A model generated the notes under the pieces. That model saw only the letters and a program-made list of their open reading frames with translations, was not told where the DNA came from and searched no databases. Positions 738-61,407 of a DNA stretch of 64,000 bases are shown piece by piece. Source of the DNA: Caldisericia bacterium. Lineage in GTDB: Bacteria; Caldisericota; Caldisericia; B22-G15. The stretch lies in NCBI GenBank assembly GCA_030018355.1, contig JASEFN010000003.1, positions 83,939-147,938 on the forward strand, written 5' to 3'. The position numbers and the translations under genes are program-made. Each line of letters opens with the position of its first letter. The stretch's first letter is position 1.

Positions 738-1238
738 ATGTGGAGAAGAGGAAAGGGTTTTACCCTTATTGAGTTAATGGTTGTAATCGCAATTATCTTG
801 ATTCTTGCTCTTATTGCTATTCCAGCTTATAGGAATATGCAAAATAGAGCAAGGAAATCAAGAGTTCAGAGTGATTTAAGGACACTCGCAAATGCTCTTC
901 AAATGTTTTACACTGACTGGAATACTTATCCTGTTCAAGAAACTGCTGATAGATTAGTTGCAACCTCAGGTCCAGGAGCAGAACTTACAGGGAGTACTGC
1001 TGCAACAATTAATGTTTCTACAGCGGTAAGTGCAACAGGTGAAAGAGGTGGAATAGTATATATAGAGAAACTTCCAATTGATCCATTTGATCCAGGTAAT
1101 GGTTCTTATTATTATCAAAGTAATCCTAGTGGTACCTCATATGTGTTATATTCTCAGACATCAGCACCTAACGAATATATATATAGAGATTCTGTTGGAA
1201 ATGCTGGTGTAACGACTACAGCTCCAACACCTCCATAA
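738..1238 (+). CDS. Type IV pilin / pseudopilin, the likely major subunit.
   Basis: N-terminus KGFTLIELMVVIAIILILALIAIPAY is a prepilin cleavage/methylation motif with Glu5. Strong RBS AAAGGAGG. Followed by a strong terminator. Confidence 0.85.
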   Translation: MWRRGKGFTLIELMVVIAIILILALIAIPAYRNMQNRARKSRVQSDLRTLANALQMFYTDWNTYPVQETADRLVATSGPGAELTGSTAATINVSTAVSATGERGGIVYIEKLPIDPFDPGNGSYYYQSNPSGTSYVLYSQTSAPNEYIYRDSVGNAGVTTTAPTPP

Positions 1239-1282
1239 TAATTTTTGTTAACTTTTAATACTTGTTGAGTTTAAAGGTTATC

Positions 1283-1320
1283 GGAGGAGAGAGATATCTC
1301 TCTCCTCCAGTTTAAAAAAT
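1283..1320 (+). terminator. Rho-independent terminator.
   Basis: Perfect hairpin GGAGGAGAGAGAT-ATC-TCTCTCCTCC followed by a T/A-rich tract. Confidence 0.7.
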
Positions 1321-1352
1321 TTTAAAGGGGAAATTAAAAGAGGAATTTAATT

Positions 1353-2015
1353 GTGATAATTTTTAAGTTATTTAGAAACAAAAAAGGAATTACCTTAATT
1401 GAAGCAATACTTGCTATTGTAATTTTTGTTTTTCCAATCTTTGCTACTCTATCTACTATAACTTTTTTATATCAACAAACACGTAATAGAAATCTTGAAT
1501 TACTTGCTGAAAATTTATGTAATTATATTTTAGAGGATTTGAGGGGTAGAAAATTTTATTATTATGAGGGAGAGGTGGGAGTAACTGAACAAAATAATCT
1601 TCAAAGGTTATATGAAGTTTTACCACAAGAAGAAATTTTGCCAGACGGTTCTGATCCTTTTGGTTATCCTGGAGAAAGAATAATGAAATATTCATGTATT
1701 AATGATACAATTTATGATACTGCTATTTATAATGAGAATAATCCATCATATACTTATCCATATGTTATTTTTCCTTCTGATGATTCAAGAAAATTTTATA
1801 ATATATTTAAAGTTGAACTTTATATAACAAGATTTATTAATGCCAATGTAAATGAACCAATCGAAAATGTTGATCCATATAAATTCATTTATAAAATAGA
1901 TGTTGTTTTATTAATTGAAGATCCTAAAAGTTCTTATACAAATTTAAAAGGAACTGTGTATGGTTGGAAAAGATTCACAGTAGCATCAACTGAGGTAACA
2001 TACCATGATCCGTAA
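1353..2015 (+). CDS. Prepilin-type minor pilin (GTG start).
   Basis: KGITLIEAILAIVIFVF N-terminal motif with an RBS upstream. Confidence 0.6.
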   Translation: MIIFKLFRNKKGITLIEAILAIVIFVFPIFATLSTITFLYQQTRNRNLELLAENLCNYILEDLRGRKFYYYEGEVGVTEQNNLQRLYEVLPQEEILPDGSDPFGYPGERIMKYSCINDTIYDTAIYNENNPSYTYPYVIFPSDDSRKFYNIFKVELYITRFINANVNEPIENVDPYKFIYKIDVVLLIEDPKSSYTNLKGTVYGWKRFTVASTEVTYHDP

Positions 2016-2556
2016 AAGACTTGGTTTTACTTTGATAGAACTTATGATATCTATTGCAATTTTTTCTGTAATTTTAGTTGGTATATATCCTATTTTTACT
2101 CAAATTACTACATTTAATCAAGAGAATTATATAAGAACTGCTCTTATAGATAATTTAAGAGCAGGGATGGATAGATTGATAAGGGAATTAAGAGAAGCAA
2201 CATCGGTAGAATTAGAGAATAATTTAATTCAAGATAATTATATAATATTTTCTCACCCAAATCCAAATTCTCCAAGTGGGATAGAGACAGTTAAATATGA
2301 ACTTACCACATCATCTTATTCAATCAGTTTTTTTCCTCAAGGAAAAGAGATCAAAAGATATGTTTATAATAGTACAACCAATTCATGGGAAGGTGGAAAT
2401 CCAGTTACTGAACCTACGATTTACTCATTAAAATTTTTAAGAGTTGGTCAAATTATTAAGATAGAAATAATTTCAAAAGTGCAATTAAGACTAAAAAAAG
2501 CACCACAAGATTATATTTATTTAGCTAATGTAACGGTTAGAAACCCATTACCTTAA
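2005..2556 (+). CDS. Prepilin-type minor pilin.
   Basis: LGFTLIELMISIAIFSVIL N-terminus. It overlaps the upstream gene end, indicating an operon. Confidence 0.7.
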   Translation: MIRKRLGFTLIELMISIAIFSVILVGIYPIFTQITTFNQENYIRTALIDNLRAGMDRLIRELREATSVELENNLIQDNYIIFSHPNPNSPSGIETVKYELTTSSYSISFFPQGKEIKRYVYNSTTNSWEGGNPVTEPTIYSLKFLRVGQIIKIEIISKVQLRLKKAPQDYIYLANVTVRNPLP

Positions 2557-2589
2557 TATAAATTTAATTATAAAGAAAGGAGGAAAGAT

Positions 2590-4983
2590 ATGTATAAAAA
2601 AAGAAATGGATTTGCATTAATTACTGTGTTAATCATATCAACTATTCTATTTGGTGTAATAGGCTTCACTTTTATTGCTGCTAATAGAAATTTAAATTTA
2701 AAAACAATTCTTCATCTTTCAAAAACCTCTTTAACAACCGCTGATGCTGGACTTGAAGAGATCATAAGAGAGATTCAGAGTAGTCATTTTGATAACATAG
2801 GATTATATTTATTAACACAATATATAAAAGGTTTAGATTCAACACCAGCCCTTTATAATTACTATCCTGATTTCTTCAAAGATCCAAGAAATGGTAATTA
2901 CATTTTAACAAGAGCAAAATATTTTATGGATTTTGATTATTATACACTTGATAGCGTAGGTAATCCTGTTCCAATGAAAATTGTTAATTGGAACGATTCT
3001 AATTCAAATGGACTTGCAGATGAAGGTGAATATATTTCTAAAGTGGTTGTAGAACCAAATGAAATTAAAGTTGTGGAAAGTGTCACAAGATTTATAGAAA
3101 ATTTGGCAAGACCTCAAGATGATTCAAAAATAACTGAAATTACTAATGATATTCAAAATGCATATAACACATGGATGACATATCTATGGGGTCTAAACTG
3201 GAATGAGGGGTTTAAAACAACTGACACAGGCGTAAATCTTGGAAAAATGGAAGAGATGATAAGTAAAATTGGTGGTAATGATTTAGTTGCTGATTGTTCA
3301 GGAATTAATATAAATGATGTAGTTAAACCATATGATATTGATCATCCAGCAACAGGTGATACATATGAAGGAATTATTATTCAAACTGCTGGAAAAATTG
3401 ACAGTTCAACAAGTTCGCCACAAAGAGGTTTAATAATTATAACAGCAATTGGTTATTCATTTAGTTCACCAATTCCAAAAGTTGATTATGAAAATATAAT
3501 TAAACCAAGACTTACACTTGTATGTCCAAGACCAAGTGACCCCGAATATCCAGATCACTATTTAAATGTTCTTGATATCGATGCTATTAATAACTCTCTC
3601 AAACTTGCAGGTGTTAGATATAGAATTACTCCGATGAAAAGAGGAATTAGGGGTGAATTTGAAGTAAAATATGAGGCGCCACCAAATTCAATAATTCAAT
3701 TATTAAGAGAATCAGAGACAGTGCAAACAATATCATATCAAGACCAGGTTAGTTTTTCAGATTATCTTGTTGCATCAAATGACACAATAAATTTTGGATA
3801 TGATGAAGAAGTTCATGGTCCAATTAGAAGTAATGGCAACATAAACTTTTCTGGAGAAATTTGGGGCACAATAACTGCAAATGATTATGTTTGGGATTAT
3901 ATAACATTTGGTCCTTATGCAAATCAACATACAGGTGGCTTTCATTTTTATTATAATGGTACAGAATATAAAGTGGAACCTTTTAAAAATACAACCCAAA
4001 ATAATCCTTCGTATACTATTGCAAATATTTATCCTTCATTAGTTTATAATGGGGTGACATATACCACTGTGAAAATTGTTCAAGCACCAGACCAAAAGAC
4101 ATATTATGTAGATTTACCACCATTTAATTCACCATTAAACAATATCGGACCTGAAGATGTAAAGGTTTATTCACAATTACAACCTAATATGGATTTTTCA
4201 AGAGTTCAAACATCTGGAAATCAAATAAAAACAATTGCACAACAAACTGGTTATTATTTTAACGGAACAAGTACACCAGTTGAGTTGCATTTTCTTGAAA
4301 ATGGCACAATTCAAATAAAAGAGGGGAATGGACCAACAAGAATAATTCCAATGCCAACAAATTATCCTGTTACCCTTCCAGATGGAACAGTATATCAAGG
4401 AGGAGTTATTTATGTTCAAGGTGATGTTACTGTTAGAGGCAAAGTTAATGGAAGAGTAACTGTTTATGCATCGGATGATATATGGATAATGTCTGATTTA
4501 ACATATGTTCACCCTGCTGTTACAGATCCAAATCAAGTACCAAATTATATTCCTGATGCACTTGGTTTAATTGCTTATGATGATGTCTTTATACATAAAA
4601 ATGCTCCAGAACACTTAAGAATTGATGCAGCAGTTTTAGCACAAACTGGTTCTTTTGGGATAGATCCAAACGCTAATTGGCATCCATATAATCCAAATGG
4701 ACATGTTCTTGATTTTAGAGGTTCTCAAACTTTCTATTCATCAGATAATGCACCAGCGATTGTAAGTGGCAGTAGAGTGAAAGGATATGAAACTCAATTG
4801 ACTTATTATGATTATAACTTACAAAGAGCAAGACCACCCCTATTCCCAACTATTGGAGATGAAGTTATAACAAGAATAGCAATTACCAACACTCAAACAT
4901 ACGATGAAATAAATTTAGTTGGACCACTTAAATCAACACTTTTTGGTAGAATTCTCTGGCGTGAAATGGTAAACCCTCCATAA
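2590..4983 (+). CDS. Large (797 aa) pilin-like protein, a putative pilus-tip or adhesin minor pilin of the PilX/GspK-like class.
   Basis: NGFALITVLIISTILFGV pseudopilin-like N-terminus, then a long Asn/Thr/Tyr-rich extracellular-type domain. RBS AAGGAGG. Confidence 0.55.
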   Translation: MYKKRNGFALITVLIISTILFGVIGFTFIAANRNLNLKTILHLSKTSLTTADAGLEEIIREIQSSHFDNIGLYLLTQYIKGLDSTPALYNYYPDFFKDPRNGNYILTRAKYFMDFDYYTLDSVGNPVPMKIVNWNDSNSNGLADEGEYISKVVVEPNEIKVVESVTRFIENLARPQDDSKITEITNDIQNAYNTWMTYLWGLNWNEGFKTTDTGVNLGKMEEMISKIGGNDLVADCSGININDVVKPYDIDHPATGDTYEGIIIQTAGKIDSSTSSPQRGLIIITAIGYSFSSPIPKVDYENIIKPRLTLVCPRPSDPEYPDHYLNVLDIDAINNSLKLAGVRYRITPMKRGIRGEFEVKYEAPPNSIIQLLRESETVQTISYQDQVSFSDYLVASNDTINFGYDEEVHGPIRSNGNINFSGEIWGTITANDYVWDYITFGPYANQHTGGFHFYYNGTEYKVEPFKNTTQNNPSYTIANIYPSLVYNGVTYTTVKIVQAPDQKTYYVDLPPFNSPLNNIGPEDVKVYSQLQPNMDFSRVQTSGNQIKTIAQQTGYYFNGTSTPVELHFLENGTIQIKEGNGPTRIIPMPTNYPVTLPDGTVYQGGVIYVQGDVTVRGKVNGRVTVYASDDIWIMSDLTYVHPAVTDPNQVPNYIPDALGLIAYDDVFIHKNAPEHLRIDAAVLAQTGSFGIDPNANWHPYNPNGHVLDFRGSQTFYSSDNAPAIVSGSRVKGYETQLTYYDYNLQRARPPLFPTIGDEVITRIAITNTQTYDEINLVGPLKSTLFGRILWREMVNPP

Positions 4984-4995
4984 ATATAACTTTTA

Positions 4996-5025
4996 GGGGG
5001 TGATAAATTTCACCCCCAGTTTAAT
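4996..5025 (+). terminator. Rho-independent terminator.
   Basis: GGGGGTGA-TAAATT-TCACCCCC hairpin followed by an AT-rich run. Confidence 0.65.
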
Positions 5026-5030
5026 AAGAA

Positions 5031-5555
5031 ATGAATAAAAAAGGATTTACAATAATTGAATTAGTGGTAACTTTAGCAGTTCTACTTGTTTTAATAGGTG
5101 GAGTTGTATATATTTCTCCAAGATTTATAATGAGGCAAAAATTAAAAAATAATGCATGGCAAGTTTTAAATGATATTAAAGAGGTTCAGGAAAGAGCAAG
5201 GGCACAACTTGAAAGATTAAGAATTGAATTTGATATAGATAATGGAACTTATAGATATGAAAAAAGGAAAAATGCTTTTGAGAGTGGATCAAATGAGAAT
5301 GTTGTGACTAAAAAACTTGATTTAAGAATAAATTTTAAAAGCATAAGAATTGGAAATACTACCTATGGAGCAGGAATTGCAACTTATATGTATGATGAAT
5401 GGGGGGCACCAAAAAAAGTTGATAACACAGATCCTGGCGAAATTTTAATTATTATAGAGACCCCAAGTTTAAAAAATAGTGAAGGACAAAATTTATCTAT
5501 TGAAATAACTGTTGCCCCAGGAACAGGTGCTCTTCGCATGTTTGGTCCAAAATAA
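5031..5555 (+). CDS. Prepilin-type pilin.
   Basis: KGFTIIELVVTLAVLLVL N-terminus. Confidence 0.7.
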   Translation: MNKKGFTIIELVVTLAVLLVLIGGVVYISPRFIMRQKLKNNAWQVLNDIKEVQERARAQLERLRIEFDIDNGTYRYEKRKNAFESGSNENVVTKKLDLRINFKSIRIGNTTYGAGIATYMYDEWGAPKKVDNTDPGEILIIIETPSLKNSEGQNLSIEITVAPGTGALRMFGPK

Positions 5556-5588
5556 GTCATATTAAATTTAGGATGTTATAATTTATTT

Positions 5589-6002
5589 GTGAGAAGAGAT
5601 AAAAAAGAAGAAGCAAAAAGATGGATTTTACAAGCAATAGATGAATATAATGATGCAGAAGAATTAAGAAAATTAAATAAATTTTATTTAGCACTTTTTC
5701 ATTTTCAACAAGCAGTTGAAAAAGCGCTAAAAGGATTTTTATATTTTAAAACTGGTTCTATTCATCACTTTTTTACACACTCGATTGATGATTTATTAAT
5801 ACAAGCAATAAATTTTGATAAAGAATTTGAAAATTATAAAGATTCAAAAAAATTAGATAAATATTATATACCTACAAGATATCCTAATGGTCTTCCTGGT
5901 GGAATTCCTTCAAGATTTTTTGATGACCCTGAAGAAGCACTTGAAGCATCTAAAATTGCAAAGAAAATTATTTATTTTATTAAGGATAAATTAGATTTAT
6001 GA
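5589..6002 (+). CDS. HEPN-domain protein, the putative toxin partner of the adjacent MNT.
   Basis: About 137 aa and alpha-helical, with YIPTRYP near the C-terminus, typical of the HEPN (PF05168) family. Its stop overlaps the nucleotidyltransferase start. Confidence 0.6.
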   Translation: MRRDKKEEAKRWILQAIDEYNDAEELRKLNKFYLALFHFQQAVEKALKGFLYFKTGSIHHFFTHSIDDLLIQAINFDKEFENYKDSKKLDKYYIPTRYPNGLPGGIPSRFFDDPEEALEASKIAKKIIYFIKDKLDL

Positions 6003-6349
6003 ATCTTTTAGATTTTATAAAAAAAGAGAAATTAAAAAGAAAAAAGTTATTAGAAAAAAATTTAAAGAAGATAATTTCACAATTAAAAAAAATAGGTGCA
6101 TTAAAAATTTATCTTTTCGGTTCTTTTTCAAGAGGTGATATAGATATTTATAGCGATATTGATTTATTTATTGTTATGCCTGAAGATAAAAGTGGAAAAG
6201 AGTGGTTAGATATAATATATGAATCTATTGAAAAAGATGTTGCAGTTGATTTTATTGTTTTCAATAAAAAAGAATTTGAATATGAAAAAGATTTTAATCC
6301 TTTAATAATTAATATACTTGAAAATGGCAAATTAATTTATTCAAAATGA
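5999..6349 (+). CDS. Minimal nucleotidyltransferase (MNT) of a HEPN/MNT pair.
   Basis: GSFSRGDIDIYSDIDL, the classic G-S-x(9-13)-D-x-D NTase motif. Confidence 0.8.
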   Translation: MNLLDFIKKEKLKRKKLLEKNLKKIISQLKKIGALKIYLFGSFSRGDIDIYSDIDLFIVMPEDKSGKEWLDIIYESIEKDVAVDFIVFNKKEFEYEKDFNPLIINILENGKLIYSK

Positions 6350-6419
6350 TAAAATAACATCTTGAAATAAAAATTCAATTTTTGTTAAAATAATAAAAAT
6401 AATTTTTTGGAGTTATTTT

Positions 6420-7082
6420 GTGTTTAAAAAATTTAATGGATTTACAATAATAGAACTTATTGTTGTTATTACAATTCTTTCGATAATTTCAATGGGTATA
6501 ATTTATCTTTCTCCAACTCTTATTGCTACTCAAAAATTAAGAAATGATGCATGGCAACTTGTTAATGATTTAAGAGAGGTTCAGGTAAGAGCAATGGCAC
6601 AACTTGAAAAGTTAAAAATCAATTTTTATGTTTATAATCCAAGTACACCAGAATTAAATAATATTTATGTATTTGAATTAAGAGAAGGTGCAATTCAAAA
6701 TGCATATAATGTGGGAAAAGATATTGTTTATATTATTAATCATCCAGGCGAGTTTCCAAATATTGTTGTAAGAAAATTTAGCAAAAATATAGGTTTTCCA
6801 TACTCATTTGGATATACTCAGGGAATTACAACAGACGATGGTTTAGGTAGTGCAAATTCTGTTGTTTTTGGAACTCAATCATCTCCAATCTCTTATTTTG
6901 TTTCATTTTCTTTCAATGAATGGGGAAATCCATCTCAAGGAGGTCATATAAATTTAATTTCTAATAATTTACTTGGAAAAACAAAAGATTCAAAAGGCAA
7001 CAGATTACCAAAAGTTATAACAATTTACATAACACCAGCAACTGGTCGCATAAGATTTGTTGGACCTCGTGATTGGAATTAA
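6420..7082 (+). CDS. Prepilin-type pilin (GTG start).
   Basis: NGFTIIELIVVITILS N-terminus. It resembles the protein encoded at 5031-5555, especially in the N-terminal segment (LRNDAWQLVNDLREVQ vs LKNNAWQVLNDIKEVQ). Confidence 0.7.
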   Translation: MFKKFNGFTIIELIVVITILSIISMGIIYLSPTLIATQKLRNDAWQLVNDLREVQVRAMAQLEKLKINFYVYNPSTPELNNIYVFELREGAIQNAYNVGKDIVYIINHPGEFPNIVVRKFSKNIGFPYSFGYTQGITTDDGLGSANSVVFGTQSSPISYFVSFSFNEWGNPSQGGHINLISNNLLGKTKDSKGNRLPKVITIYITPATGRIRFVGPRDWN

Positions 7083-7084
7083 TC

Positions 7085-7117
7085 ATGTTACAAAGGTGCC
7101 TGACACCATTGTAACAT
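7085..7117. repeat. Palindromic repeat copy A (ATGTTACAAAGGTGCCTGACACCATTGTAACAT).
   Basis: Near-perfect 33-bp inverted repeat directly read from the sequence. It belongs to a five-copy family in the window. Confidence 0.8.
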
Positions 7118-7162
7118 GGGTTTTTATTGACAAAAGCGTAGTTTATGATATAAAATGAAGTT

Positions 7163-7236
7163 GGGTGCGGGGTCAAGGGGAGCCCGACTTTAGGGATGAG
7201 GTCTTTGGAAAAAAAGATAAGTGACCTTCCGCACCC
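7163..7236. ncRNA. Candidate small structured RNA of unknown class.
   Basis: GGGTGCGG+GGTCA ... TGACC+CCGCACCC long-range stem enclosing a CCC-GACTTTA-GGG hairpin. It is a GC island in an otherwise AT-rich intergenic region and is flanked by palindromic repeats. No ORF. Confidence 0.25.
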
Positions 7237-7266
7237 TTAAATATTTTTAGTTCAAGATTTTAAAAA

Positions 7267-7299
7267 ATGTTAAAATTGTGTCTGACACTTTTGTAACAT
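7267..7299. repeat. Palindromic repeat copy B.
   Basis: ATGTTAAAATTGTGTCTGACACTTTTGTAACAT. Confidence 0.75.
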
Positions 7300-7300
7300 G

Positions 7301-7333
7301 ATGTTAAAATCGTGTCTGACACTATTGTAACAT
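7301..7333. repeat. Palindromic repeat copy C, in tandem with copy B.
   Basis: ATGTTAAAATCGTGTCTGACACTATTGTAACAT. Confidence 0.75.
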
Positions 7334-7334
7334 G

Positions 7335-8141
7335 TTAGATTTCGAGATTGAGAGATTTTAATATAAATTTTATAACATCATCTGCTTTTCTTTCATCAGA
7401 AATAGAAATTAGATCTTGTTTAAGTTTTTTTAAATTTTCTCTAAATAGATTAAAATCTTGCATACCCTTTGGAATATGATATGTAAGATAATATAGACCC
7501 TTTGGCCCAATATTTTTATCTATATATTCGGAGAATTTTTCATAAAGGTAATTTGGTATATTTATTAATTTGTCTGATTTTTTAAGTAAACCAACTGAAA
7601 GGAGAGCATAAAGTATCTTTATAACTTTTGTTTCAGGCAAAATTGTATTTTTCATTGCATCTTCTATACTAATTGGATTCATAAATAGATACATTACATG
7701 CCACTCATCAGGAGAAAGTTCAATGTTGTTTTCAGGAGCATTTGGATTCATTTCAATTATTGTATATCTTGGAGGTATCTTTTTATAAAGATCTTTTGTC
7801 TCATCTGCAGTTCTTATTGCATCAATCATTAGAACATCAATTGATTTTGTAATTTTTTGAGGGGTATCAATTTCTTTTAATTTAAATGAAAAAGTCCCCT
7901 CATCTATTAAAAAAAGTGAATAAAATGCCTCTTCACCAGTTAAATTTCCACAAAATGCATCATAAACTTTTCCTTTTACAATATGAATTTCACCCTTTAT
8001 CTCCTCAACCCCTTTTTTACCTTGAATATATAATATACCAGTTTTTCCTGAATTAGAAAGAAGTGTTAAAACATCAACAATAGGAAAAGTTTCAATATTT
8101 CCCTCAATAGCCATTCTGATAACCTCCTTTTTAAATTTCAA
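7335..8141 (-). CDS. DUF4388-like domain protein, a possible signalling or receiver-like protein.
   Basis: N-terminal GNIETFPIVDVLTLLSNSGKTGILYI resembles the DUF4388 family. Weak call. Confidence 0.35.
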   Translation of the reverse strand: MKFKKEVIRMAIEGNIETFPIVDVLTLLSNSGKTGILYIQGKKGVEEIKGEIHIVKGKVYDAFCGNLTGEEAFYSLFLIDEGTFSFKLKEIDTPQKITKSIDVLMIDAIRTADETKDLYKKIPPRYTIIEMNPNAPENNIELSPDEWHVMYLFMNPISIEDAMKNTILPETKVIKILYALLSVGLLKKSDKLINIPNYLYEKFSEYIDKNIGPKGLYYLTYHIPKGMQDFNLFRENLKKLKQDLISISDERKADDVIKFILKSLNLEI

Positions 8142-10742: not shown

Positions 10743-10767
10743 AAATTTCTCCTTTTGCCTGGTCTTC

Positions 10768-10920
10768 CCTTTGTTCACAGGTTACCCTGTGTTTTTGAGG
10801 AAGACCTCAAAGGACGGCAACATCCTTGAGGGCATCCGCCGAATGGTTCGATTTTACCCCTTTTAAATAAGGGGAACCCTCTTCCTCGTCACCCAGATTT
10901 TTATATCTGGGCCAGGCGCT
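10768..10920 (-). ncRNA. glmS ribozyme: glmS ribozyme (GlcN6P-dependent self-cleaving riboswitch).
   Basis: Minus-strand RNA reads ...A|GCGCCUGGCCCAGAU..AUCUGGGUGACGAGGAAGAGGGUUCC...AUCGAACCAUUCGGCGGAUGCCCUC...GUGAACAAAGGGAAGACC. This matches the conserved glmS ribozyme core seen in Bacillus: AGCGCC cleavage site, UGACGAGGA, UCGAA..UUCGGCGGAUGCC, GAACAAAG.GAA. Confidence 0.85.
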
Positions 10921-12196
10921 TTTTTAAAAAGTTTTCTAAGGAGAGTGCTATCTCCTTAATCTCTTCCTCTTTTTCACCTTCCACCATAATTCTAATTAAA
11001 TTTTCTGTTCCTGATGGTCTTACCAAAACCCTTCCTTTTCCATTTAATCTTTCATTCCATATCATCACCTCCTTTTTAAATTCTTCGTCATTCATAACTA
11101 AATTTTTATTTGAAACTTCTACATTTCTTAAAATTTGAGGATATCTTATAAATTCTTTTTTCAATTCAGAAAGTGGCTTGTTTTCATTTAAAATAACTCT
11201 CAAAAGTAAAAGTGAAGTTATTATTCCATCTCCAGTTTTACTTTGTGGGAGAAAAATTATGTGACCAGATTGTTCTCCACCAATTGGAGCATTTACTTCA
11301 AGCATTTTATAAAGAACATTTCTATCACCAACTGGAGTTTCATAATATTTTATCTTATATTTTTCAAGAAGAATTTTTAACCCAAAATTACTCATTACTG
11401 TTATTACAATGCTATCTAATTTTAGGTATTTAACGAGAATAAACATTATTATATCTCCATCTACAACTTCTCCCTTATCATCAACTGCAATAACTCTATC
11501 TCCATCTCCGTCAAAAGAAAATCCTATATCAAAGTTACTCTCTTTCTTTTTTTGAACAAGAAAATTAATATTTGTAGAGCCACAATTTACATTTATTTTA
11601 TTTCCATCTGGAATTTCATTATAAAGAATGAGATCTGCATTAAGTGATGAGAAAATAATTGGAGCAACAACCGTTGTTGAGCCATAAGCAAGATCCAAAG
11701 CAATTTTCATTCCTTTTAAATTTAATTTATTATTTTTTATAACCTCACTAATATATTGATGTTTACCTAAAAGAAATTCAAAATTTTTTCCGAAATTTTT
11801 ACTTAATTTAATTTCACTATCAATTAATTTTTCTATCTCTTCTTCCTCATCTTCTGAAAGTTTAATTCCACTTCTGTTGAAAAATTTTATTCCATTATAC
11901 TCAATTGGGTTGTGAGATGCAGAGATCATTCCTCCCCCACTTTTTCCATTTATTTTAAGAAGAAGAGAGAGTGCTGGTGTTGGAAGAATTCCAGTTGAAT
12001 AAACATTAACACCAGTAGATAAAATTCCTGAAATTAAAGCAGCCTCAAGTGAATCAGATGATAAACGAGGGTCTTTTGAAACAATTAAATCTCCTTTAAA
12101 AAATAATCCTGCTGCTTTGCCTACTTTTAAAGCAAAATCTGGTGTTAGATCTTCATTTGCAATGCCTCTTATACCATCAGTCCCAAAGTATTTCAT
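10901..12196 (-). CDS. glmM: Phosphoglucosamine mutase.
   Basis: ISASHNPIEYNGIKF phosphoserine-loop motif and the FGTDGIRG N-terminus. Confidence 0.9.
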   Translation of the reverse strand: MKYFGTDGIRGIANEDLTPDFALKVGKAAGLFFKGDLIVSKDPRLSSDSLEAALISGILSTGVNVYSTGILPTPALSLLLKINGKSGGGMISASHNPIEYNGIKFFNRSGIKLSEDEEEEIEKLIDSEIKLSKNFGKNFEFLLGKHQYISEVIKNNKLNLKGMKIALDLAYGSTTVVAPIIFSSLNADLILYNEIPDGNKINVNCGSTNINFLVQKKKESNFDIGFSFDGDGDRVIAVDDKGEVVDGDIIMFILVKYLKLDSIVITVMSNFGLKILLEKYKIKYYETPVGDRNVLYKMLEVNAPIGGEQSGHIIFLPQSKTGDGIITSLLLLRVILNENKPLSELKKEFIRYPQILRNVEVSNKNLVMNDEEFKKEVMIWNERLNGKGRVLVRPSGTENLIRIMVEGEKEEEIKEIALSLENFLKKRLAQI

Positions 12197-12615: not shown

Positions 12616-12692
12616 ACATCACTCCTTGATTATCTTTAATTTTTTACATTATACCACACATTGAAAAAATGTTTTTTAAATCAAATTCTATT

Positions 12693-12731
12693 AACATGTT
12701 ACTATGGTGTCTGACACCATTGTAACATGTT
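12693..12731. repeat. Palindromic repeat copy D (AACATGTTACTATGGTGTC-T-GACACCATTGTAACATGTT).
   Basis: 39-bp near-perfect palindrome between the ABC permease stop and the osmC/glmM/glmS operon. Confidence 0.8.
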
Positions 12732-13515
12732 ATTCACTGGTTAATCTTTTGTAGGTAAAGTACATTAAAGAAAATATAAAAACATCAAAAAGAAAAATAA
12801 TGAATAAACCCTGTATTAATGGTAAAATCTCCCATCCCTTGATTGTTAGAATTCTAATTGGATTTACTGCATAAGAGAGTGGATTTATTCTTGCAATTAC
12901 TTGTAACCACTTTGGCATCGCTTCAAGTGGAAATAGTGCTGTACTTGAAAAAGTTATTGGAAGAGTGAAAAAGTTAATTATTGTAAAAAATGTTTCAATT
13001 GTTTTTATTGTTGTTCCAATTATTAATGAAAATCCTGCAAAAATAAATGTAAAAAGCATACAAAATAAAATTATAACAATGACTCCTAAAATTCCTGTTG
13101 AAAATCTAACCCCAAAAATATACGCAATAAAGAGTATAATGCTACTTTGAAGAGCGGTTGCAATCATACTTGAGAGTGCTTTCCCAACAGGAATTGCAAC
13201 TCTATTAATTGGTGATGTTAAAAGTTTATCAAGATATCCAATTCTTCTATCCCAAATTATAGAACTTCCCCCAAAAATTCCACCAAAAAGAGAGGTCATA
13301 ATTACAATTCCAGGGGTCATAAATGAAAGATAGTTTGATGTCCCAAAAATTTGAGAAGCAAAAGGATTGTTTGTTAATCTACTCATTGTATTACCCATAA
13401 GACCTAACCAAATTAATGGTTGAAATATAGTTGCCAAGATTCTTGCTCTTTGTCTGAAGAATTTAATTAACTCTCTTTTACATATAGTAAATATATCTGA
13501 AATAAAGATACTCAT
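12730..13515 (-). CDS. ABC-2 type transporter permease.
   Basis: Six-TM hydrophobic profile. It is translationally coupled to the upstream ATPase. Confidence 0.7.
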   Translation of the reverse strand: MSIFISDIFTICKRELIKFFRQRARILATIFQPLIWLGLMGNTMSRLTNNPFASQIFGTSNYLSFMTPGIVIMTSLFGGIFGGSSIIWDRRIGYLDKLLTSPINRVAIPVGKALSSMIATALQSSIILFIAYIFGVRFSTGILGVIVIILFCMLFTFIFAGFSLIIGTTIKTIETFFTIINFFTLPITFSSTALFPLEAMPKWLQVIARINPLSYAVNPIRILTIKGWEILPLIQGLFIIFLFDVFIFSLMYFTYKRLTSE

Positions 13516-20957: not shown

Positions 20958-22265
20958 ATGAATTTAGATCCATTATCATTGCCAATTGCCTTACCTGAGG
21001 GTGTAGATTATGATGATTATCTTGTGGCAACATATCTTGCAATTTTTCCAAAAGAGATACCAGTGAGAAAACTTGCACCTGCTCTTGCAATTGAGCAAAG
21101 TACAGGAACATGGGTTCCTGTTCCAGGCGAGACCCCAGAAGTTAAAAGAAAACATATTGCAAAAGTTATTGGAGTTTATGAAATTCCAGATTATGAATTT
21201 GAAATTCCAAAAGAAGTAACAATGAGAAATTACATAATTCAAATTGCTTTCCCTGAAATAAACATTGGAGAGCAAATTCCAATGCTTCTTACCACTATTG
21301 TTGGTAACATATCTATGGGTGGGAGAATTAAACTTCTTGATATCCGATTTCCAGAAAAATTTGTTAAAGGATTTAAAGGTCCAAAATTTGGAATTGAAGG
21401 TATAAGAAAATTACTCAATATTCCAAAAAGGCCCCTTTTAAATAATATGATAAAACCATGCACAGGATATACAGTTGATGTTGGTGCTGAACTATTTAGA
21501 TTAGCAGCATTAGGAGGATGTGATATTGTAAAAGACGATGAACTAATTGCAGATGCAAGTTTTAATAGAATTGAAGAGAGAGTAAAAAGATATATGCAGA
21601 TTGAAAAAGAAGTTTATGAAATTAAAGGGGAGCATACATTATATACTGTTAATATTACTGATTCAGTACCAAAAATTTTTGAAAATGCAAAAAGAGCAAT
21701 AGATGCAGGTGCGAATGCTTTAATGATAAACTATCTTGCAGTTGGTTTTGCAGTTTTTCAAGCAATAGCAGAAGATCCAGAAATTCAGGTTCCAATTCTT
21801 GCTCATATGGATGTTGCTGGTGCTCTATATATGTCTCCTGATTTTGGAATAACATCTCATCTTGTTTTAGGCAAATTAATAAGACTTGCTGGAGCAGATA
21901 TTGTTGTTATTCCTGCACCTTATGGAAAAGCACAAGTTTTACCTGAAAAATTTATAAACAATGCAAACAATTTGAGACTTCCATTTTATCACATAAAGCC
22001 CACATTTCCTATGGCTTCTGGTGGAATAACACCATCAATGGTTCCAAAAGTTATCGAAGATTTAGGTCTTGATATTGTTATTGGTTCAGGTGGTGGAATT
22101 CATGCTCATCCTGAAGGACCAATAGCAGGAGGAAAAGCATTTAGGCAAGCAATTGAAGCAACAATGAGGGGAATTCCTTTAAAAGAAGCAGCAAAAGAGT
22201 ATAGAGAACTCGCAATTGCTCTTGAAAAATGGGAAGATCCATTTGGAAAGGGTCTTGGTATATAA
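20958..22265 (+). CDS. RuBisCO-like protein (form IV RLP), not a carboxylase.
   Basis: GGCDIVKDDE (vs RuBisCO GGLDFTKDDE) and a VIGSGGGIHAHP glycine loop. The H-R pair of the LHIHRAMHA motif is replaced by ILAHMDVAGA, so the R295 equivalent is missing, typical of RLPs. Confidence 0.8.
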   Translation: MNLDPLSLPIALPEGVDYDDYLVATYLAIFPKEIPVRKLAPALAIEQSTGTWVPVPGETPEVKRKHIAKVIGVYEIPDYEFEIPKEVTMRNYIIQIAFPEINIGEQIPMLLTTIVGNISMGGRIKLLDIRFPEKFVKGFKGPKFGIEGIRKLLNIPKRPLLNNMIKPCTGYTVDVGAELFRLAALGGCDIVKDDELIADASFNRIEERVKRYMQIEKEVYEIKGEHTLYTVNITDSVPKIFENAKRAIDAGANALMINYLAVGFAVFQAIAEDPEIQVPILAHMDVAGALYMSPDFGITSHLVLGKLIRLAGADIVVIPAPYGKAQVLPEKFINNANNLRLPFYHIKPTFPMASGGITPSMVPKVIEDLGLDIVIGSGGGIHAHPEGPIAGGKAFRQAIEATMRGIPLKEAAKEYRELAIALEKWEDPFGKGLGI

Positions 22266-25909: not shown

Positions 25910-26545
25910 ATGAAAATAAAATTTTTGGGACATTCATGTTTTTTGATTGAAATAGGTGGTTTAAAGGTTATGACAGATCCCTATGATAAATCAGTACCCT
26001 ATGATTTTCCAGATGGAGAAGAAGTAGATGTAGTTACAATATCACATGATCATTTTGACCATTCTGCTTTTAATAGAGTAAAAATAAAAAGAGAAGTTTT
26101 AAAAGATCCAACTAATAAGGAAATTCAAGGTGTAAAATTTAAATCAAAAACTTTTTTCCACGATGAAGAAATGGGGAGAAAAAGAGGAAAAAATGCACTC
26201 TTTTTAATTGAGGGAGAGGGAATAAAAATTTTACATTGTGGAGATTTAGGCCACATTCCTAATGAGAAAGATTTAGAAGAGTTTAAAAATATTGATATAC
26301 TTTTGCTTCCAGTTGGGGGATACTATACAATTGATTCAAAAAAAGGAGATGAGTTGATTAAAATTTTAAATCCAAAAATTGTTATACCAATGCATTATAA
26401 GACAAAAAATCTTGATTTTCCAATTGCAAAAGTTGATGATTTTTTAAAAAATAAAGAAAATGTACATAAATTAAATTCACTTGAATTTGAACTTGATAAA
26501 TCTAATATTGAAAAATACAAAGGTATTGTTGTATTTCCATTTTAG
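25910..26545 (+). CDS. MBL-fold metal-dependent hydrolase (UPF0173-like).
   Basis: KFLGHSCFLIE...VVTISHDHFDH motif. Confidence 0.65.
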   Translation: MKIKFLGHSCFLIEIGGLKVMTDPYDKSVPYDFPDGEEVDVVTISHDHFDHSAFNRVKIKREVLKDPTNKEIQGVKFKSKTFFHDEEMGRKRGKNALFLIEGEGIKILHCGDLGHIPNEKDLEEFKNIDILLLPVGGYYTIDSKKGDELIKILNPKIVIPMHYKTKNLDFPIAKVDDFLKNKENVHKLNSLEFELDKSNIEKYKGIVVFPF

Positions 26546-26550
26546 AAAAA

Positions 26551-26583
26551 ATGTTACAAAAGTGTCTGACACCATTTTAACAT
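26551..26583. repeat. Palindromic repeat copy E (degenerate).
   Basis: ATGTTACAAAAGTGTCTGACACCATTTTAACAT. Confidence 0.65.
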
Positions 26584-31815: not shown

Positions 31816-33306
31816 ATGACAATAAAAAATAAACTTTTAATTTTAACTTCAATTATAATTTTTATATCAATTTTAAGCATAATAATATTTATCTATTTTG
31901 TTACTAAAATTCATATAAACAACAATATTGAATTTAGAGTACAAGTTTATAAACAAAGTCTTTTATCACTATTAGAAGGAGAAAAAAGTAAATTAAATCT
32001 CATTCTTAATGATTACGCAAATTGGACTGAGTTAGGGGAATATGCAGTAGTGAAAAAAGATAAAGAATGGATAGAAGAAAATCTTTTTCCATGGGTCAAA
32101 GAAAATTTTGGTTTTGATTTAATTCTTTTAATAAAAGATGATGGTGAAATTATAGTAAACTCTTTTATTGATGATTTAGATACTTCAAATTTTATTTTGA
32201 AAGATGGGAAAACAAAATTTGGATATTATGTAACAAATAGAGGTCTAATCTTATATTCAACTTCAGGAGTTTATGATAATGATGGAATTAATTTTTATAA
32301 CGCATATTTAACATTTGGATATCTCATAAATGAAAAAACTTTAAAAAATTATAAAGATATTTTAGACATGGATATTCAATTGATAACTGAAAATTACATA
32401 ATTTCTACTGATCCAACACTTAAAAAATTTACATTAGAAGAAGAGAAAAAAACTTATCAATATATAGATAATTATATTTGTACATTTTTACCAATTTATA
32501 ATGAAAATGGAGAAAAAATCGCAGAATTCTATATTCATAAATTTGACGACTTTCCACGCAAATTAATGGATTCAATGTACTCAGGAATTTTAATTGCAAT
32601 GATAATAACATTTATTTCTGCTTTTGTAATAAATATTTTAGTTGTTTTAAATATCTTAAAACCTCTAATAAAATTTGAGGGTATTACTAAAAAAATTGCA
32701 GAAGGAAGGTATGATGTAAAACTAAATTTTAATAGAGAAGATGAAATAGGTTACTTAGCAAAAAGTTTTAAAAAGATGATTGAGAAAATTTTAAATCGAG
32801 AGAATGAATTGAAAAAAGAGAGGGAAAAATTAATTGAGAGTTCTTATAGAGACCCACTTACAGAAGTTTATAATAGGAAATATCTTATTGAATATGTTGA
32901 GAAATTGATAAATGATAAAAGAAAATTTTCAATTGTATTTCTTGATCTTGATAACTTTAAGTTAATAGATGATGTTCTTGGACACAAAACAGGAGATGAG
33001 ATATTAAAGAAAATAGCAATCTGGTTTCAAAATAATTTAAGAAAAGATGATATTGTTGCAAGATATGGGGGAGATGAATTTTGTTTAATACTTCATGATG
33101 TGGATAAAAAGAGAAGTGAAGAGATAGTTGAAAGATTATATAAACTTTTTACCCTTGAATCATTTTATCCTGAAGATATTCCAATTGGATTTAGTTTTGG
33201 AATTGCAACTTATCCAGACGATGCAGATAATCTTGACAAACTTTTAACTCTTGCAGATACAAAGATGTATAAAATGAAAGAATTAAGATTTAAACAGGAA
33301 GGGTAA
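31816..33306 (+). CDS. Sensor diguanylate cyclase (GGDEF).
   Basis: Two TM segments flanking a periplasmic region, a HAMP-like linker, RYGGDEF active site, and the RxxD I-site region. Confidence 0.85.
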   Translation: MTIKNKLLILTSIIIFISILSIIIFIYFVTKIHINNNIEFRVQVYKQSLLSLLEGEKSKLNLILNDYANWTELGEYAVVKKDKEWIEENLFPWVKENFGFDLILLIKDDGEIIVNSFIDDLDTSNFILKDGKTKFGYYVTNRGLILYSTSGVYDNDGINFYNAYLTFGYLINEKTLKNYKDILDMDIQLITENYIISTDPTLKKFTLEEEKKTYQYIDNYICTFLPIYNENGEKIAEFYIHKFDDFPRKLMDSMYSGILIAMIITFISAFVINILVVLNILKPLIKFEGITKKIAEGRYDVKLNFNREDEIGYLAKSFKKMIEKILNRENELKKEREKLIESSYRDPLTEVYNRKYLIEYVEKLINDKRKFSIVFLDLDNFKLIDDVLGHKTGDEILKKIAIWFQNNLRKDDIVARYGGDEFCLILHDVDKKRSEEIVERLYKLFTLESFYPEDIPIGFSFGIATYPDDADNLDKLLTLADTKMYKMKELRFKQEG

Positions 33307-54503: not shown

Positions 54504-56810
54504 CCCTTTGAGTGATGTTTCAAAATTTTTTCTGGTATATTTATAACCCCATTCTTTACAAGATAAAAAATAAAAATATAAACTCTTTCTCCATTGCTTT
54601 TCTTTGCTTTCTTTACTTTTAATAACCCTACAATATTCCAAATGATAAACACCCTCCATACTATACACTTTCCAATAATTCACTTTTAACAGATATATGA
54701 CTTTCGTTCACACATTTTACATTACTAAAAACTTGTTCTATACAAATATTAGCTACTTAACAAATTTTTTTGTATTTTTGAGCCTTCTCTTTTGCTTTAA
54801 GCCTTTTAGAAGATTTAACTTTTTGCCATACAATGTCATTTGTATGCAAATTGGTTTAAAGCCAAGTTTCTCCAACTTTTCAAGTAATATACCTGACTGC
54901 TCATTTAAAAGTTTACCTTCATTATTGTGCTGATTTAAGTTTTACACCGAATATCCACAACCTGTTATCTTGTCGATAAACTAAAACAATCGGTTTGATA
55001 TTAACTTTTATCTCTTTCCCTTGTTTACTCCAAAAATAATATGTGATGTATTATACTATAAGCTTTCTATTAACTAAAACATAAGTATATAAGTATTTTT
55101 TATTTTTCTAAACCTATCCCTTTTTCTGTTAGATATTGGAATAGTCCATGTGGTCTTGCTTCTAAAAATAGTTGAATACAAAAAAATTATTCTTAATGAA
55201 GGAAATTTTAATTTCCTAATAGTTCCTTATCTCTACCAAAAAAGTTTTCTATAACTTGCTTGATGTGGTATTTTAAGAAACAAGAGAGTAATTATGTATT
55301 ATAGGAAGTTTTTTCTGCAGAATTCCTCTATAAGCTTAAATATTTGTTGTGCTTTTAAAGTTGAAAAATATGTATTTTGAATTTTTTTTATAATTTTTCA
55401 GAGTTATTATAATAACCAATATTTTGAAATTTTGTATAGATGCTATTTTCGAAGGTCAAGGATATTTTTGAAACACTTAAGTTTTAAGATTTACGCTGAG
55501 AAAGCCAATCCTTTTGGTCTGTGATGAAAGGTGGTATATATAATGAAAGTCTAATAATAAAGATCAAGTTTGGGTCTTAGATAAACTTCTAAAAACGGAC
55601 CACTTGTAGGTAATTGCCTATGAAACGGAAAATTTTATTGAAAGAGGAAAAGTTCATCTCTTAAGATGTTAGGGAAGTTACTTTATACATTAATAATATG
55701 CTCTTTTAATTTCAGTTAATAAAATTTTAAACATTATATAACCTCTTCTATTTTTTAAAAAAGATCAATTTCTTTGTTTTATTTGAATATTTTTTATAAA
55801 TGTTCAAGATTTGTAATTCTAAATATATAAAATCAGAATCGCTTTTAATTTTTGAAACACATATAAGACTTTCAAACTTAAAAATATCTATAATATTTTA
55901 TATATTTCTTTTAAGTTCGTTTTTTTATATTTGCTATTAAGATAACAGGATAACCTAATTTACGCTTTAACTATTTCTCCTTTCAAAGAACTGATTTTTC
56001 CTTTAAAGTAATTACCTTTAATATTTTTAACAATCAATGTAATTAATAAAAAATATTTGTCAATATTCTACGTAGTAATGTACTCACCTTTGAAAAAAGT
56101 AGAGAAAGTTTATGTTTTGCTTTTTTTAGAATTTTCTTTCAACTATTAAATAATTTTCCCATTTTTTATAACAAAATATACTTCTATCCTATTTCTAGTT
56201 CTTTTTCTGAAATAGTATTTATATAATTTGATGTTATTCTGTGAGAGTATTTGATTAAATATTATTTCACCTTTATCAGCTTCTAGAAAATAAAGTAAAC
56301 TTGCATTTTTTAAAAATAAAAAACTAGCCAATAAAAGTAATTAAAATTTTTTATTTTGTATTCTTTGAGTTCCTTTATCTGTTATATTGTAAGATTGTCA
56401 ATCTCTGTTTTTAATAAAAATTACTCTGTTATTACAAAAATTTGTAAACTTTACATTTCATATAGTTTATATAAAACTTGCACATTTCAAATCTTCACAG
56501 ATACTATTCAAACTTCTCGTAAAATAAAACTAAAAATTAACAAGATTCAAATACTACAATAAAATAAATTTTTTATTAAAAATAAAATTTCTAAATATTA
56601 ACACATACTTCAATTTTTACATCAATTTACCTGATAAAATGTCTTAATAAGGATAAATCATGATTTACCTATATAATTTTTCAATCATAAATAAATTATT
56701 AAAAAATTTTTGTAAAAATCTCTTTTCGTTAATTTTGGAAATGTAATAAGAAATATAAATCCATTTTGAAAAACTTAACAAACTACTGTACTATTGACAC
56801 ATTTTTACCC

Positions 56811-57671
56811 CTAAATCTTAAATATTCCATATCCTAACGATGTTTTCGCTCCAATACCAAACTTTTCTAATGCTTCCTTTAATAACACTTCTGACTTTTG
56901 GAGTAAAGAATTGTCCTGTGAAATTAAATAGAATCGAAAAGTTGTTTTCTCAACAGTCAAAAATTCTACAGGTTTTGGATTTTGCCAATCTGCCGGAGGT
57001 TGCTTTCCAGAATAATAATCAGGATAATGGGGGTTCATTATATCAATCTTCAAATTTATATCACTTACCGGATAAGCATCTATAAAATATACCTTCCCTT
57101 GATGCTTTTGAGTGCCGAAGATTTTAATCAACTCTCCAAATTTTATATTACCAATTTCCAAATCCAACTCGTTTCCTTTTTCAAGATCACTCGAAATTTG
57201 CTCCACAGCATCTTCAAAACTTTTATTATCTTTATTCATCTTCTGTTCTGCAAACTTCAACACCGCCCAATGCTTTGTTACTCCTTTGACCGCACTTCCC
57301 GGAATATACGGAATCCCATAAATATGATGCAAAGTCATCGATGTTTCCTGGGGATGTACTCCTCCAAGCCCAATTATAAGATGCCAAGGACATATGCTTT
57401 GAAAATTCTTAACATTAAAACCATTATTTTTTAAAAGATTAATCAAATTTTCTCTTCTCTTCTGAATGTTTTCTAAAAAATTTCTTTCCCATTTGAATTT
57501 CTCAATTTCCTTATTAATCACTATCCTTTCAGGCAAGATCTCCCCAAGAACAATTGGTGAGTTAAATAGAAAATAAAAATTATTATCAGGTCCAATGCTT
57601 TGAGCTGAAAGTATACTAAAGGTATCTCGAGGAAAATACTTATTTTTTGATACATGAAACCTAATACTCAT
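56811..57671 (-). CDS. cmr6: Type III-B CRISPR RAMP protein Cmr6.
   Basis: GLGGVHPQETSMTLHHIYGIPYIPGSAVKG, the Cmr6 G-rich loop / PYIPGSS(L/V)KG signature. Confidence 0.85.
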   Translation of the reverse strand: MSIRFHVSKNKYFPRDTFSILSAQSIGPDNNFYFLFNSPIVLGEILPERIVINKEIEKFKWERNFLENIQKRRENLINLLKNNGFNVKNFQSICPWHLIIGLGGVHPQETSMTLHHIYGIPYIPGSAVKGVTKHWAVLKFAEQKMNKDNKSFEDAVEQISSDLEKGNELDLEIGNIKFGELIKIFGTQKHQGKVYFIDAYPVSDINLKIDIMNPHYPDYYSGKQPPADWQNPKPVEFLTVEKTTFRFYLISQDNSLLQKSEVLLKEALEKFGIGAKTSLGYGIFKI

Positions 57672-58096
57672 TCTTCACTCTCCTCCTCTGTTTCAATCAA
57701 ACCCTCTGCAAACCTCTTCACCCAATTTAAAAATGCAAGTATCTCCTCTGTGACATATCGATAATTTTGAGAATCAAGCGAAATAACCCATTCTACTAAC
57801 TCAATGTTATCTGGCATCTTTATTCTTGCTGTTGAATCACTTCTAAGATAATCCATCATTTGCGAATATAAAAGTTCATAAGCATTTCCATTTTTTGCTT
57901 TCGACTTAACAAATGCAAGGGTTTGCCCAAGTCCATTGGAAAGAATCATCTGAGGAATTTTTCTTGAGTAAGCACGGTAATTCTTGAGTAATTCTTTATT
58001 AGAAGAATTTTCATCAACCACTTCCTTTACACACCTATACGCAAACTCTGCTCTCCCCTTTTCAAGTTTTGTAATTAAACTCTCTCTATCAGGCAT
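57668..58096 (-). CDS. cmr5: Type III-B small subunit Cmr5.
   Basis: 142 aa and alpha-helical, positioned between cmr4 and cmr6. Confidence 0.7.
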   Translation of the reverse strand: MPDRESLITKLEKGRAEFAYRCVKEVVDENSSNKELLKNYRAYSRKIPQMILSNGLGQTLAFVKSKAKNGNAYELLYSQMMDYLRSDSTARIKMPDNIELVEWVISLDSQNYRYVTEEILAFLNWVKRFAEGLIETEEESEE

Positions 58097-58118
58097 AACT
58101 AACCTCCTTTGTTAATTT

Positions 58119-61406: not shown

Positions 61407-61407
61407 A

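Follow-up and report, generated by a model that had tools for sequence, protein, structure and literature searches.

The piece of DNA shown here carries the same short palindrome three times, and two further copies lie elsewhere in the window, meaning the whole 64,000-nt (64-kb) stretch that was analyzed. The locus therefore raises the question of what these palindromes are: a dispersed repeat family, sites for a DNA-binding protein, sites of recombination or transposition, or terminators that happen to resemble one another. The original prediction named a REP/BIME-like or MITE-like element family and a regulator or nucleoid-protein site as candidates. The evidence assembled below makes it probable that they belong to a REP-like family of dispersed palindromes in the Caldisericia, which would act as terminator or stabilizer hairpins at the 3′ ends of transcripts and would have spread by copying.

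Five palindromes in the window

A pattern search allowing up to three mismatches found a 33-bp near-perfect palindrome at exactly five sites in the window (copies 1 to 5, at 7085–7117, 7267–7299, 7301–7333, 12696–12728, and 26551–26583), with a chance expectation of 0.00 matches in 100 dinucleotide-preserving shuffles. The five copies originally described are borne out, four of them at the start positions given (7085, 7267, 7301, and 26551). The fifth had been placed at 12693, and its 33-mer starts instead at 12696, within a palindrome that extends from 12692 to 12732. Neither a profile search (nhmmer --max) nor a half-site search of the window turned up further or degenerate copies, and the 11-bp core GTGTCWGACAC and the 9-mer ATGTTACAA do not occur in the window outside the five copies. 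All five lie in the first 27 kb, and the remaining 37 kb holds none. The GC content of the window, which belongs to an uncultured Caldisericia bacterium, is ~28%, and the same contigs were found again in several metagenomes.

The positions that are invariant among the five copies read ATGTTA-N5-GTGnCTGACAC-N5-TAACAT. More generally, the unit is a near-perfect palindrome of 33–41 bp whose 13-bp apex, GGTGTCWGACACC, does not change and whose outer stem varies with lineage yet is self-complementary. The arms had been described as near-perfect around a single central T. The T is present in all five copies, and the arms pair at 14 of 16 positions in copies 1 and 3, 13 in copies 2 and 5, and 15 in copy 4. 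In copy 4, pairing that includes the flanks reaches 19 of 20 positions, and the palindrome there is 41 bp long. The central T (at 7101, 7283, 7317, 12712, and 26567) is on the + strand in every case, regardless of the strand of the adjacent gene. This would fit strand-specific insertion or a flip of the element, but the five copies amount to four independent sites and the agreement is not significant. In the orthologous copies of two relatives, L031 and L148, the center base is the opposite of that in the window.

Each copy has its own setting. Copy 1 (ATGTTACAAAGGTGCCTGACACCATTGTAACAT) starts 2 nt past the stop codon of a pilin-like N_methyl gene (6420–7082, +) and is followed by GGG and a T5 run (7121–7125); the −35 box of a small-RNA promoter comes 9 nt beyond the copy. 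Copies 2 and 3 had been called a tandem, and they do form a head-to-tail doublet with 1 nt between them, downstream of a PatA_N/DUF4388 gene on the − strand (7335–8141). Copy 3 is the member proximal to this gene and starts 1 nt past its stop codon (7335–7337), and the distal copy 2 is preceded on the + strand by A5 (7262–7266), which on the − strand is a T5 run after the hairpin. The A7/G27 mismatch that both carry identifies them as products of a tandem duplication. Copy 4 lies at the end of a tetR–ABC operon, upstream of the osmC promoter. Its 33-mer is 1 nt past the stop codon of an ABC-2 permease gene (12730–13515, −), the stop codon falls inside the stem of the longer palindrome (12692–12732), and no T-run follows. 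Copy 5 starts 5 nt past the stop codon of a Lactamase_B_3 gene (25910–26545, +), is flanked by A5 and T4, and ends 20 nt before the start of a saccharopine-dehydrogenase gene.

The description of the copies as intergenic and located at gene ends is accurate for all five, each being 1–5 nt from a stop codon. Counted together with copies from other genomes of both phyla discussed below, 21 of 26 copy/gene-end pairs fall between −7 and +5 nt from the stop codon, and some copies take up the ~40 bp that separate convergent genes. The genes beside the copies are intact, functionally unrelated housekeeping genes with Pfam matches that extend to the C terminus (FtsY, PanB, OpuAC, MutS2–Smr, and GlmS-operon genes). 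Positions other than the 3′ end are also found in relatives, where several copies lie in divergent or 5′ regions (L033, L147). In practical terms, the elements mark operon ends.

A candidate small-RNA gene that is not part of the repeat family lies between copy 1 and the doublet (7127–7248, +). Its sigma-70-like promoter, TTGACA at 7127–7132 and TAAAAT at 7151–7156 with 18 nt between them, is an 11/12 match and the best between positions 6000 and 14000. The candidate RNA is ~87 nt long and GC-rich, with a closing helix (7163–7170/7229–7236) and a T5 run at 7244–7248, and no gene lies downstream on its strand. The gene and its promoter are found beside the PatA_N gene in eight Caldisericia lineages at 79–93% identity, and the 5′ half, TTGGGTGCGGGGTCAAGGGGAGCCCGACTTTAGGG, is invariant. 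Structural covariation support for the RNA is weak because the closing helix never varies, and positions 7050–7400 gave no Rfam match to it at E ≤ 10. The small-RNA gene is conserved and unannotated, and annotators should not confuse it with the repeats. As for the palindrome itself, a reading as a promoter with CTGACA as the −35 box was rejected: no −10 box lies at a suitable distance apart from one across the tandem junction, where the fit was judged accidental.

Several other features of the window can be noted beside the repeats. The pilin-like gene before copy 1 is in a type IV pilin-like (N_methyl) gene cluster (738–7082) that has a c-di-GMP-II riboswitch immediately upstream (601–688, +) and contains a HEPN/MNT toxin–antitoxin pair (5589–6349). 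A GGDEF cyclase is encoded at 31816–33306. A glmS ribozyme (10751–10931, −) upstream of glmS is conserved in relatives, as is a RuBisCO large-subunit-like gene beside an FGGY kinase (20958–22265, +). Type III-B CRISPR–Cas (cmr) genes (56811–63978, −) adjoin a 2.3-kb AT-rich stretch without an ORF of 100 aa or more (54504–56810), where an array might be expected, and this stretch holds no CRISPR or other direct repeats. A link between the palindrome and the cmr locus was considered and dropped, the window having no array and nothing at that locus similar to the palindrome.

Hairpins, T-runs, and the question of termination

Folded as RNA, the copies give hairpins that are more stable than shuffled controls, at −18.5 kcal/mol for copy 1 (z −3.9), −22.1 kcal/mol for the doublet (z −5.7), −22.5 kcal/mol for copy 4 (z −7.4), and −9.4 kcal/mol for copy 5 (z −3.0). 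The palindromes had been said to lack a following T-tract, which is wrong. Read in the direction of the upstream gene, a T4–T5 run comes after the hairpin at three of four sites, compared with 8% of window positions (binomial P ~0.002); the sequences that come next are GGGTTTTT at 7085, TTTTTAAA at the doublet, and TTTT at 26551. The associated claim that these are not classical intrinsic terminators was overstated, given the three sites with a T-run; the copy at 12696 has none. Relatives have a T-run at about half of their gene-end copies, as read from the tails, and every high-GC copy described below is without one. The AU-rich base of the stem beside the T-run is poor for intrinsic termination. 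A simple terminator scan missed the copies because its loop rule needs a loop of 3–8 nt.

The mismatches within the stems were examined for signs of selection on RNA. In the transcribed orientation, G-U pairs are not in excess over C-A (2 versus 5), and the center base has no orientation bias (A/U = 14/12). With neither bias present, the sequences carry no signal of selection at the RNA level, and a hairpin or cruciform in DNA would be equally compatible with them.

Relatives within the class and beyond it

The related loci that were compared are ~20-kb regions around glmS and the saccharopine-dehydrogenase gene, from Caldisericia lineages with GlmS identities of 72–91%. Orthologous sites in these regions show presence/absence polymorphism. 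The site between the ABC-2 permease gene and osmC is filled in the window lineage alone, by an insertion of ~42 bp directly after the TAA. Elsewhere this site has unrelated hairpins or a canonical hairpin-plus-T-run terminator, and two lineages have almost no spacer. The presence of unrelated hairpins or a terminator at the same position indicates that selection keeps a 3′ hairpin there. In addition, osmC retains its own conserved extended −10 box, so the operon ends at this junction and a 3′ hairpin would be expected there.

A similar turnover is seen at the site between the Lactamase_B_3 and saccharopine-dehydrogenase genes. It is empty in the closest relative, L150, with 14 nt from stop to start, while the window and the more distant L148 are both filled, each by a different variant, and L151 and L152 have unrelated sequence. 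In L031, from assembly GCA_017880035.1, a counterpart of copy 1 follows the same pilin-like gene with its outer boxes swapped (ATGTAAC...GTTACAT). A copy in L033, between the small-RNA promoter and yhhN, has the divergent outer arms CCGCAAC...GTTGCGG, and the same site has no copy in L148 or L149. Further copies lie in a divergent region in L147, upstream of tetR in L149, and 0 nt after a stop codon in L152. In all, at least nine other Caldisericia assemblies carry the element type at unrelated loci, beside different neighbor genes.

The apex is constant in all Caldisericia copies, and the outer arms come in at least seven variants, all self-complementary. In a 29-copy alignment, stem pairing holds in 85.5% of cells versus 74.8% in shuffles, and the covariation score is 0.275 versus 0.106, with 0 of 500 shuffles as high. 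Such values are raised by kinship among the copies, but the pattern in qualitative terms is plain: a constant apex on a variable but paired stem. Because the outer arms change between lineages yet stay complementary, what is maintained appears to be a hairpin and not a fixed double-stranded recognition sequence.

The ~229 kb of related loci that are unbiased hold six copies, or ~1 per 38 kb, compared with five in the 64 kb of the window. Extrapolation gives roughly 40–150 copies per genome. The GTDB representatives yielded one or two exact-pattern matches each, and no orthologous genes are common to the window and the GTDB matches L001, L003, and L004. A search for target-site duplications (TSDs) was negative, direct repeats flanking the copies being no longer than mismatched controls (4.25 versus 3.73 nt; 3.26 versus 3.04 nt). 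Short flanking repeats at three window sites (AAATCT, AATA, and TTTTA) were considered as TSDs and rejected, since they are not above the mismatched-flank controls.

Counterparts were also found far outside the class. A scan of GTDB species representatives with the pattern TGTTA-N5-GTGnCWGACAC-N5-TAACA recovered the family in a Caldisericota MAG, in an unclassified 29%-GC digester MAG, and, as one copy, in an Ilumatobacteraceae MAG, CAYGLH01, of 71% GC. A metagenome scan yielded 18 contigs of ~70% GC, of which 17 belong to one metagenome and the other to a sister data set (Ga0316576, Ga0316578); every contig has TTGTTACGCAGGTGTCWGACACCTGCGTAACAA or a close variant, for at least 18 copies. The organism of origin is probably a relative of the Ilumatobacteraceae. 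Its copies abut the stop codons of intact housekeeping genes, at 0 nt for FtsY, 1 nt for PanB, and 11 and 1 nt for the convergent OpuAC and acyl-CoA-ligase genes. One contig (L023, 1395–1441) has a copy followed by a partial second right arm, CGACACCTTCGTAAC, which represents a partial duplication in tandem comparable to the doublet of the window.

The high-GC and window families have in common the whole apex and the TGTTAC/GTAACA boxes, with ~25 of 33 positions identical, a likeness that is partly imposed by the search pattern. Several matches were not forced in this way, namely C/G at arm position 7, an extra G/C by which the core is longer, a center base that is A or T in 18 of 18 copies of the 70%-GC genome, with N allowed in the search, and an equivalent placement at stop codons. 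On the strength of these unforced matches, a true relationship between the two families is likely, although not certain.

In a Flavihumibacter MAG, a perfect palindrome of 35 bp, GGTGTCAGACACATGT-TAG-ACATGTGTCTGACACC, lies right after a stop codon (L002, 7082–7116; L006, ~2980–3014), with additional TCTGACACCT units in its vicinity. It contains the GTGTCWGACAC word of the window family in another architecture, and in a third phylum. A link to viral contigs was tried and rejected: the core plus 1 bp (AGGTGTCWGACACCT and TGGTGTCWGACACCA) gave 52 and 59 matches, an extended palindrome is confined to a single small group of related contigs, and elsewhere the flanks pair no more often than by chance. 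A BLAST search of plasmids with both consensus sequences gave no match.

These remote counterparts allow a bolder reading, which is tentative and on balance doubtful. The apex would define a cross-phylum superfamily of hairpin elements that a hairpin-specific enzyme or RNA-binding protein recognizes and that is installed precisely at stop codons. Membership would extend from the Caldisericia to the Ilumatobacteraceae-like actinobacterium and possibly to the Flavihumibacter palindrome. If true, this would be a third "tagged" REP-like class beside those with GTAG and CGTC, with the tag at the loop and not the foot, and horizontal transfer would be possible between 28%-GC and 70%-GC genomes.

Probable role, alternatives, and comparison with known systems

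The strongest clue to function is position: the copies take the place of a terminator and begin at the stop codon, and those of the window show an excess of T-runs. In the reading given at the outset as probable, the unit would make up the 3′ end of the transcript from the upstream gene and would form a 13–20-bp hairpin at the stop codon or within 5 nt of it. The hairpin would stop or attenuate read-through, most clearly where a U-run comes next, would shield the upstream mRNA by blocking 3′-to-5′ exonucleases, and would insulate neighboring transcription units. With a stem that begins at the stop codon and has to be melted by the terminating ribosome, the hairpin may also couple translation termination to the fate of the mRNA. 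Such an optional second role would resemble the one reported for E. coli, where REPs no more than 15 nt from a stop codon affect translation (as cited in PMC12306157); REP termini often supply the stop codon (PMC3733652).

As for the spread of the family, gain and loss at orthologous sites and tandem duplication without TSDs suggest some non-DDE copying route. Candidates would be a hairpin-recognizing HUH/RAYT-type enzyme or template switching/gene conversion. The original prediction had proposed a check for an associated Tn/IS200-like (TnpA-REP) transposase, and none came to light: no RAYT, IS200-like, Y1_Tnp, or other transposase was found by Pfam among the ORFs of the 64-kb window or among the genes listed for the related loci, which span ~250 kb.

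The copies could also be ordinary Rho-independent terminators, alike only through local duplication or gene conversion, in which case there would be no mobile or proliferating family. A T-run after the hairpin at three of four sites would then be expected, as would the unrelated terminator hairpins that relatives carry at the same positions, the placement of all five copies within 20 kb of each other, and the lack of a mobilizing enzyme in the window and related loci. We regard this explanation as unlikely, however, because at least nine other Caldisericia assemblies have the same element at unrelated loci, the high-GC organism has at least 18 copies, orthologous sites are filled and empty between close relatives, and the 13-nt apex is conserved far past the needs of termination. 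The proviso attached to the original prediction, that the copies might be local duplications and not a dispersed element, is contradicted on the same grounds, by copies at unrelated loci in related assemblies and in another phylum. It is also quite improbable, and a little more so, that the palindromes are duplex-DNA sites at which GGTGTCWGACACC is recognized by a sequence-specific protein that binds as a dimer, for example a global regulator or a nucleoid-associated or partition-type protein. A core that is invariant across lineages and two or three phyla, a center that is always A/T (18 of 18 in the 70%-GC genome, with N allowed), the absence of a strand or G-U signal of RNA-level selection, the copy that in three Caldisericia lineages closely precedes the −35 box of the small-RNA promoter, and the copies in 5′ regions of L147 and L149 would all suit such a site. 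The case is weakened by the fact that most copies abut stop codons, at 0–5 nt, and some fill 40-bp convergent gaps without a promoter to regulate. The outer 10 bp of each arm, which a protein site would not need, vary yet remain complementary, the adjoining genes have no common function, and neither half-sites nor degenerate sites are found. The earlier proposal of a genome-wide regulator or nucleoid-protein site fares poorly on these counts of placement, covarying outer stem, and unrelated neighbors.

Recombination or transposition sites are very improbable, whether attC-like, Xer/dif-like, or a minimal MITE made of the abutted terminal inverted repeats of a DDE transposon. Placement right after stop codons is attC-like, the termini TGTTAC...GTAACA have TG...CA ends, the small-RNA gene is bracketed by copies, and the saccharopine-dehydrogenase gene beside copy 5 is missing in L031. 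Yet L150 has the dehydrogenase gene without the palindrome, no integrase, Xer-type recombinase, or transposase is nearby, and the neighbors are housekeeping operons without cassettes. An attC site has the order R″(RYYYAAC)...R′(GTTRRRY), a cassette array, and a nearby IntI, and the box order here, GTTAC...GTAAC, is the reverse of R″/R′. There is no asymmetric spacer of 6–8 bp, and an informal comparison with the consensus sequences of parS, dif, matS, attC, and known operators gave no in-register match. The proposal of a MITE-like element also sits badly with arms that are 1 base apart, with no internal sequence between them and no TSD above controls.

REP-like repeats are common, and the family itself is therefore no surprise. 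No such family has been described for the Caldisericota in the searchable literature, in which no Caldisericum repeats were found and a search with the core sequence returned only primers. A gathering-threshold scan of the whole window with Rfam 15 gave no match on the copies, and the hits at E ≤ 10 in 7050–7400 were spurious sub-threshold miRNA/snoRNA matches.

Among other known systems, intrinsic terminators likewise have a hairpin directly downstream of the gene, the window has a T-run at three of four sites, and the copies occupy the position of the terminators of relatives. They differ in that the family stem is 13–20 bp with an AU-rich base and many copies are without a T-run. Sequence-conserved terminators are known in the form of the paired DUS of Neisseria and USS of Pasteurellaceae, and the family differs from uptake sequences in having no single half-sites inside genes. 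Integron attC sites are also imperfect palindromes at or overlapping the stop codon of the preceding ORF that fold as single-stranded hairpins, whereas the family is much shorter, symmetric without extrahelical bases, and opposite in box order, with no integrase or cassette array.

Closest in kind are the REP/BIME elements or, to be more exact, those REP-like stem-loop families that are "untagged." REP copy number is usually above 100 per genome. The density of the present family, at ~1 per 13–38 kb, is apparently lower than that of REP/BIME elements. REP/BIME elements of Enterobacteria and Pseudomonas, including the REPIN–RAYT systems, and the family described here are both imperfect palindromes of 20–40 bp, extragenic and at gene 3′ ends, often within 15 nt of the stop codon, dispersed, variable from relative to relative, without TSDs, and able to form stable mRNA hairpins (PMC12306157, PMC3733652). 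The label "REP/BIME-like" is apt in this broad sense; membership in the strict sense is not supported. A GTAG or CGTC terminal tetranucleotide is absent at both ends in the 29-copy alignment, and no RAYT is seen in the window or related loci. The only cluster, at 7267/7301, is a direct tandem with a 1-nt spacer, whereas BIMEs have alternating orientations and conserved linkers. In addition, the stem is AU-rich with a conserved apex, whereas REPs have a conserved foot.

The less ordinary traits of the family are the constraint at the level of the apex, common to remote genomes, and how very closely the copies adjoin stop codons. The placement at 0–5 nt makes it a natural test case for the coupling of translation termination and 3′ hairpins outside E. 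coli. For specialists, the interest lies in a constraint that falls on the hairpin apex and not on a terminal tag, with the same apex in a genome remote in both phylogeny and base composition. The untagged REP-like stem-loop families of M. tuberculosis, D. radiodurans, Bordetella, Brucella, and cyanobacteria are species specific, with no terminal tetranucleotide and no known mobilizing enzyme (PMC3733652). The present family departs from them in that the apex, and not just the structure, is common to the lineages of a class and to a family in a different phylum.
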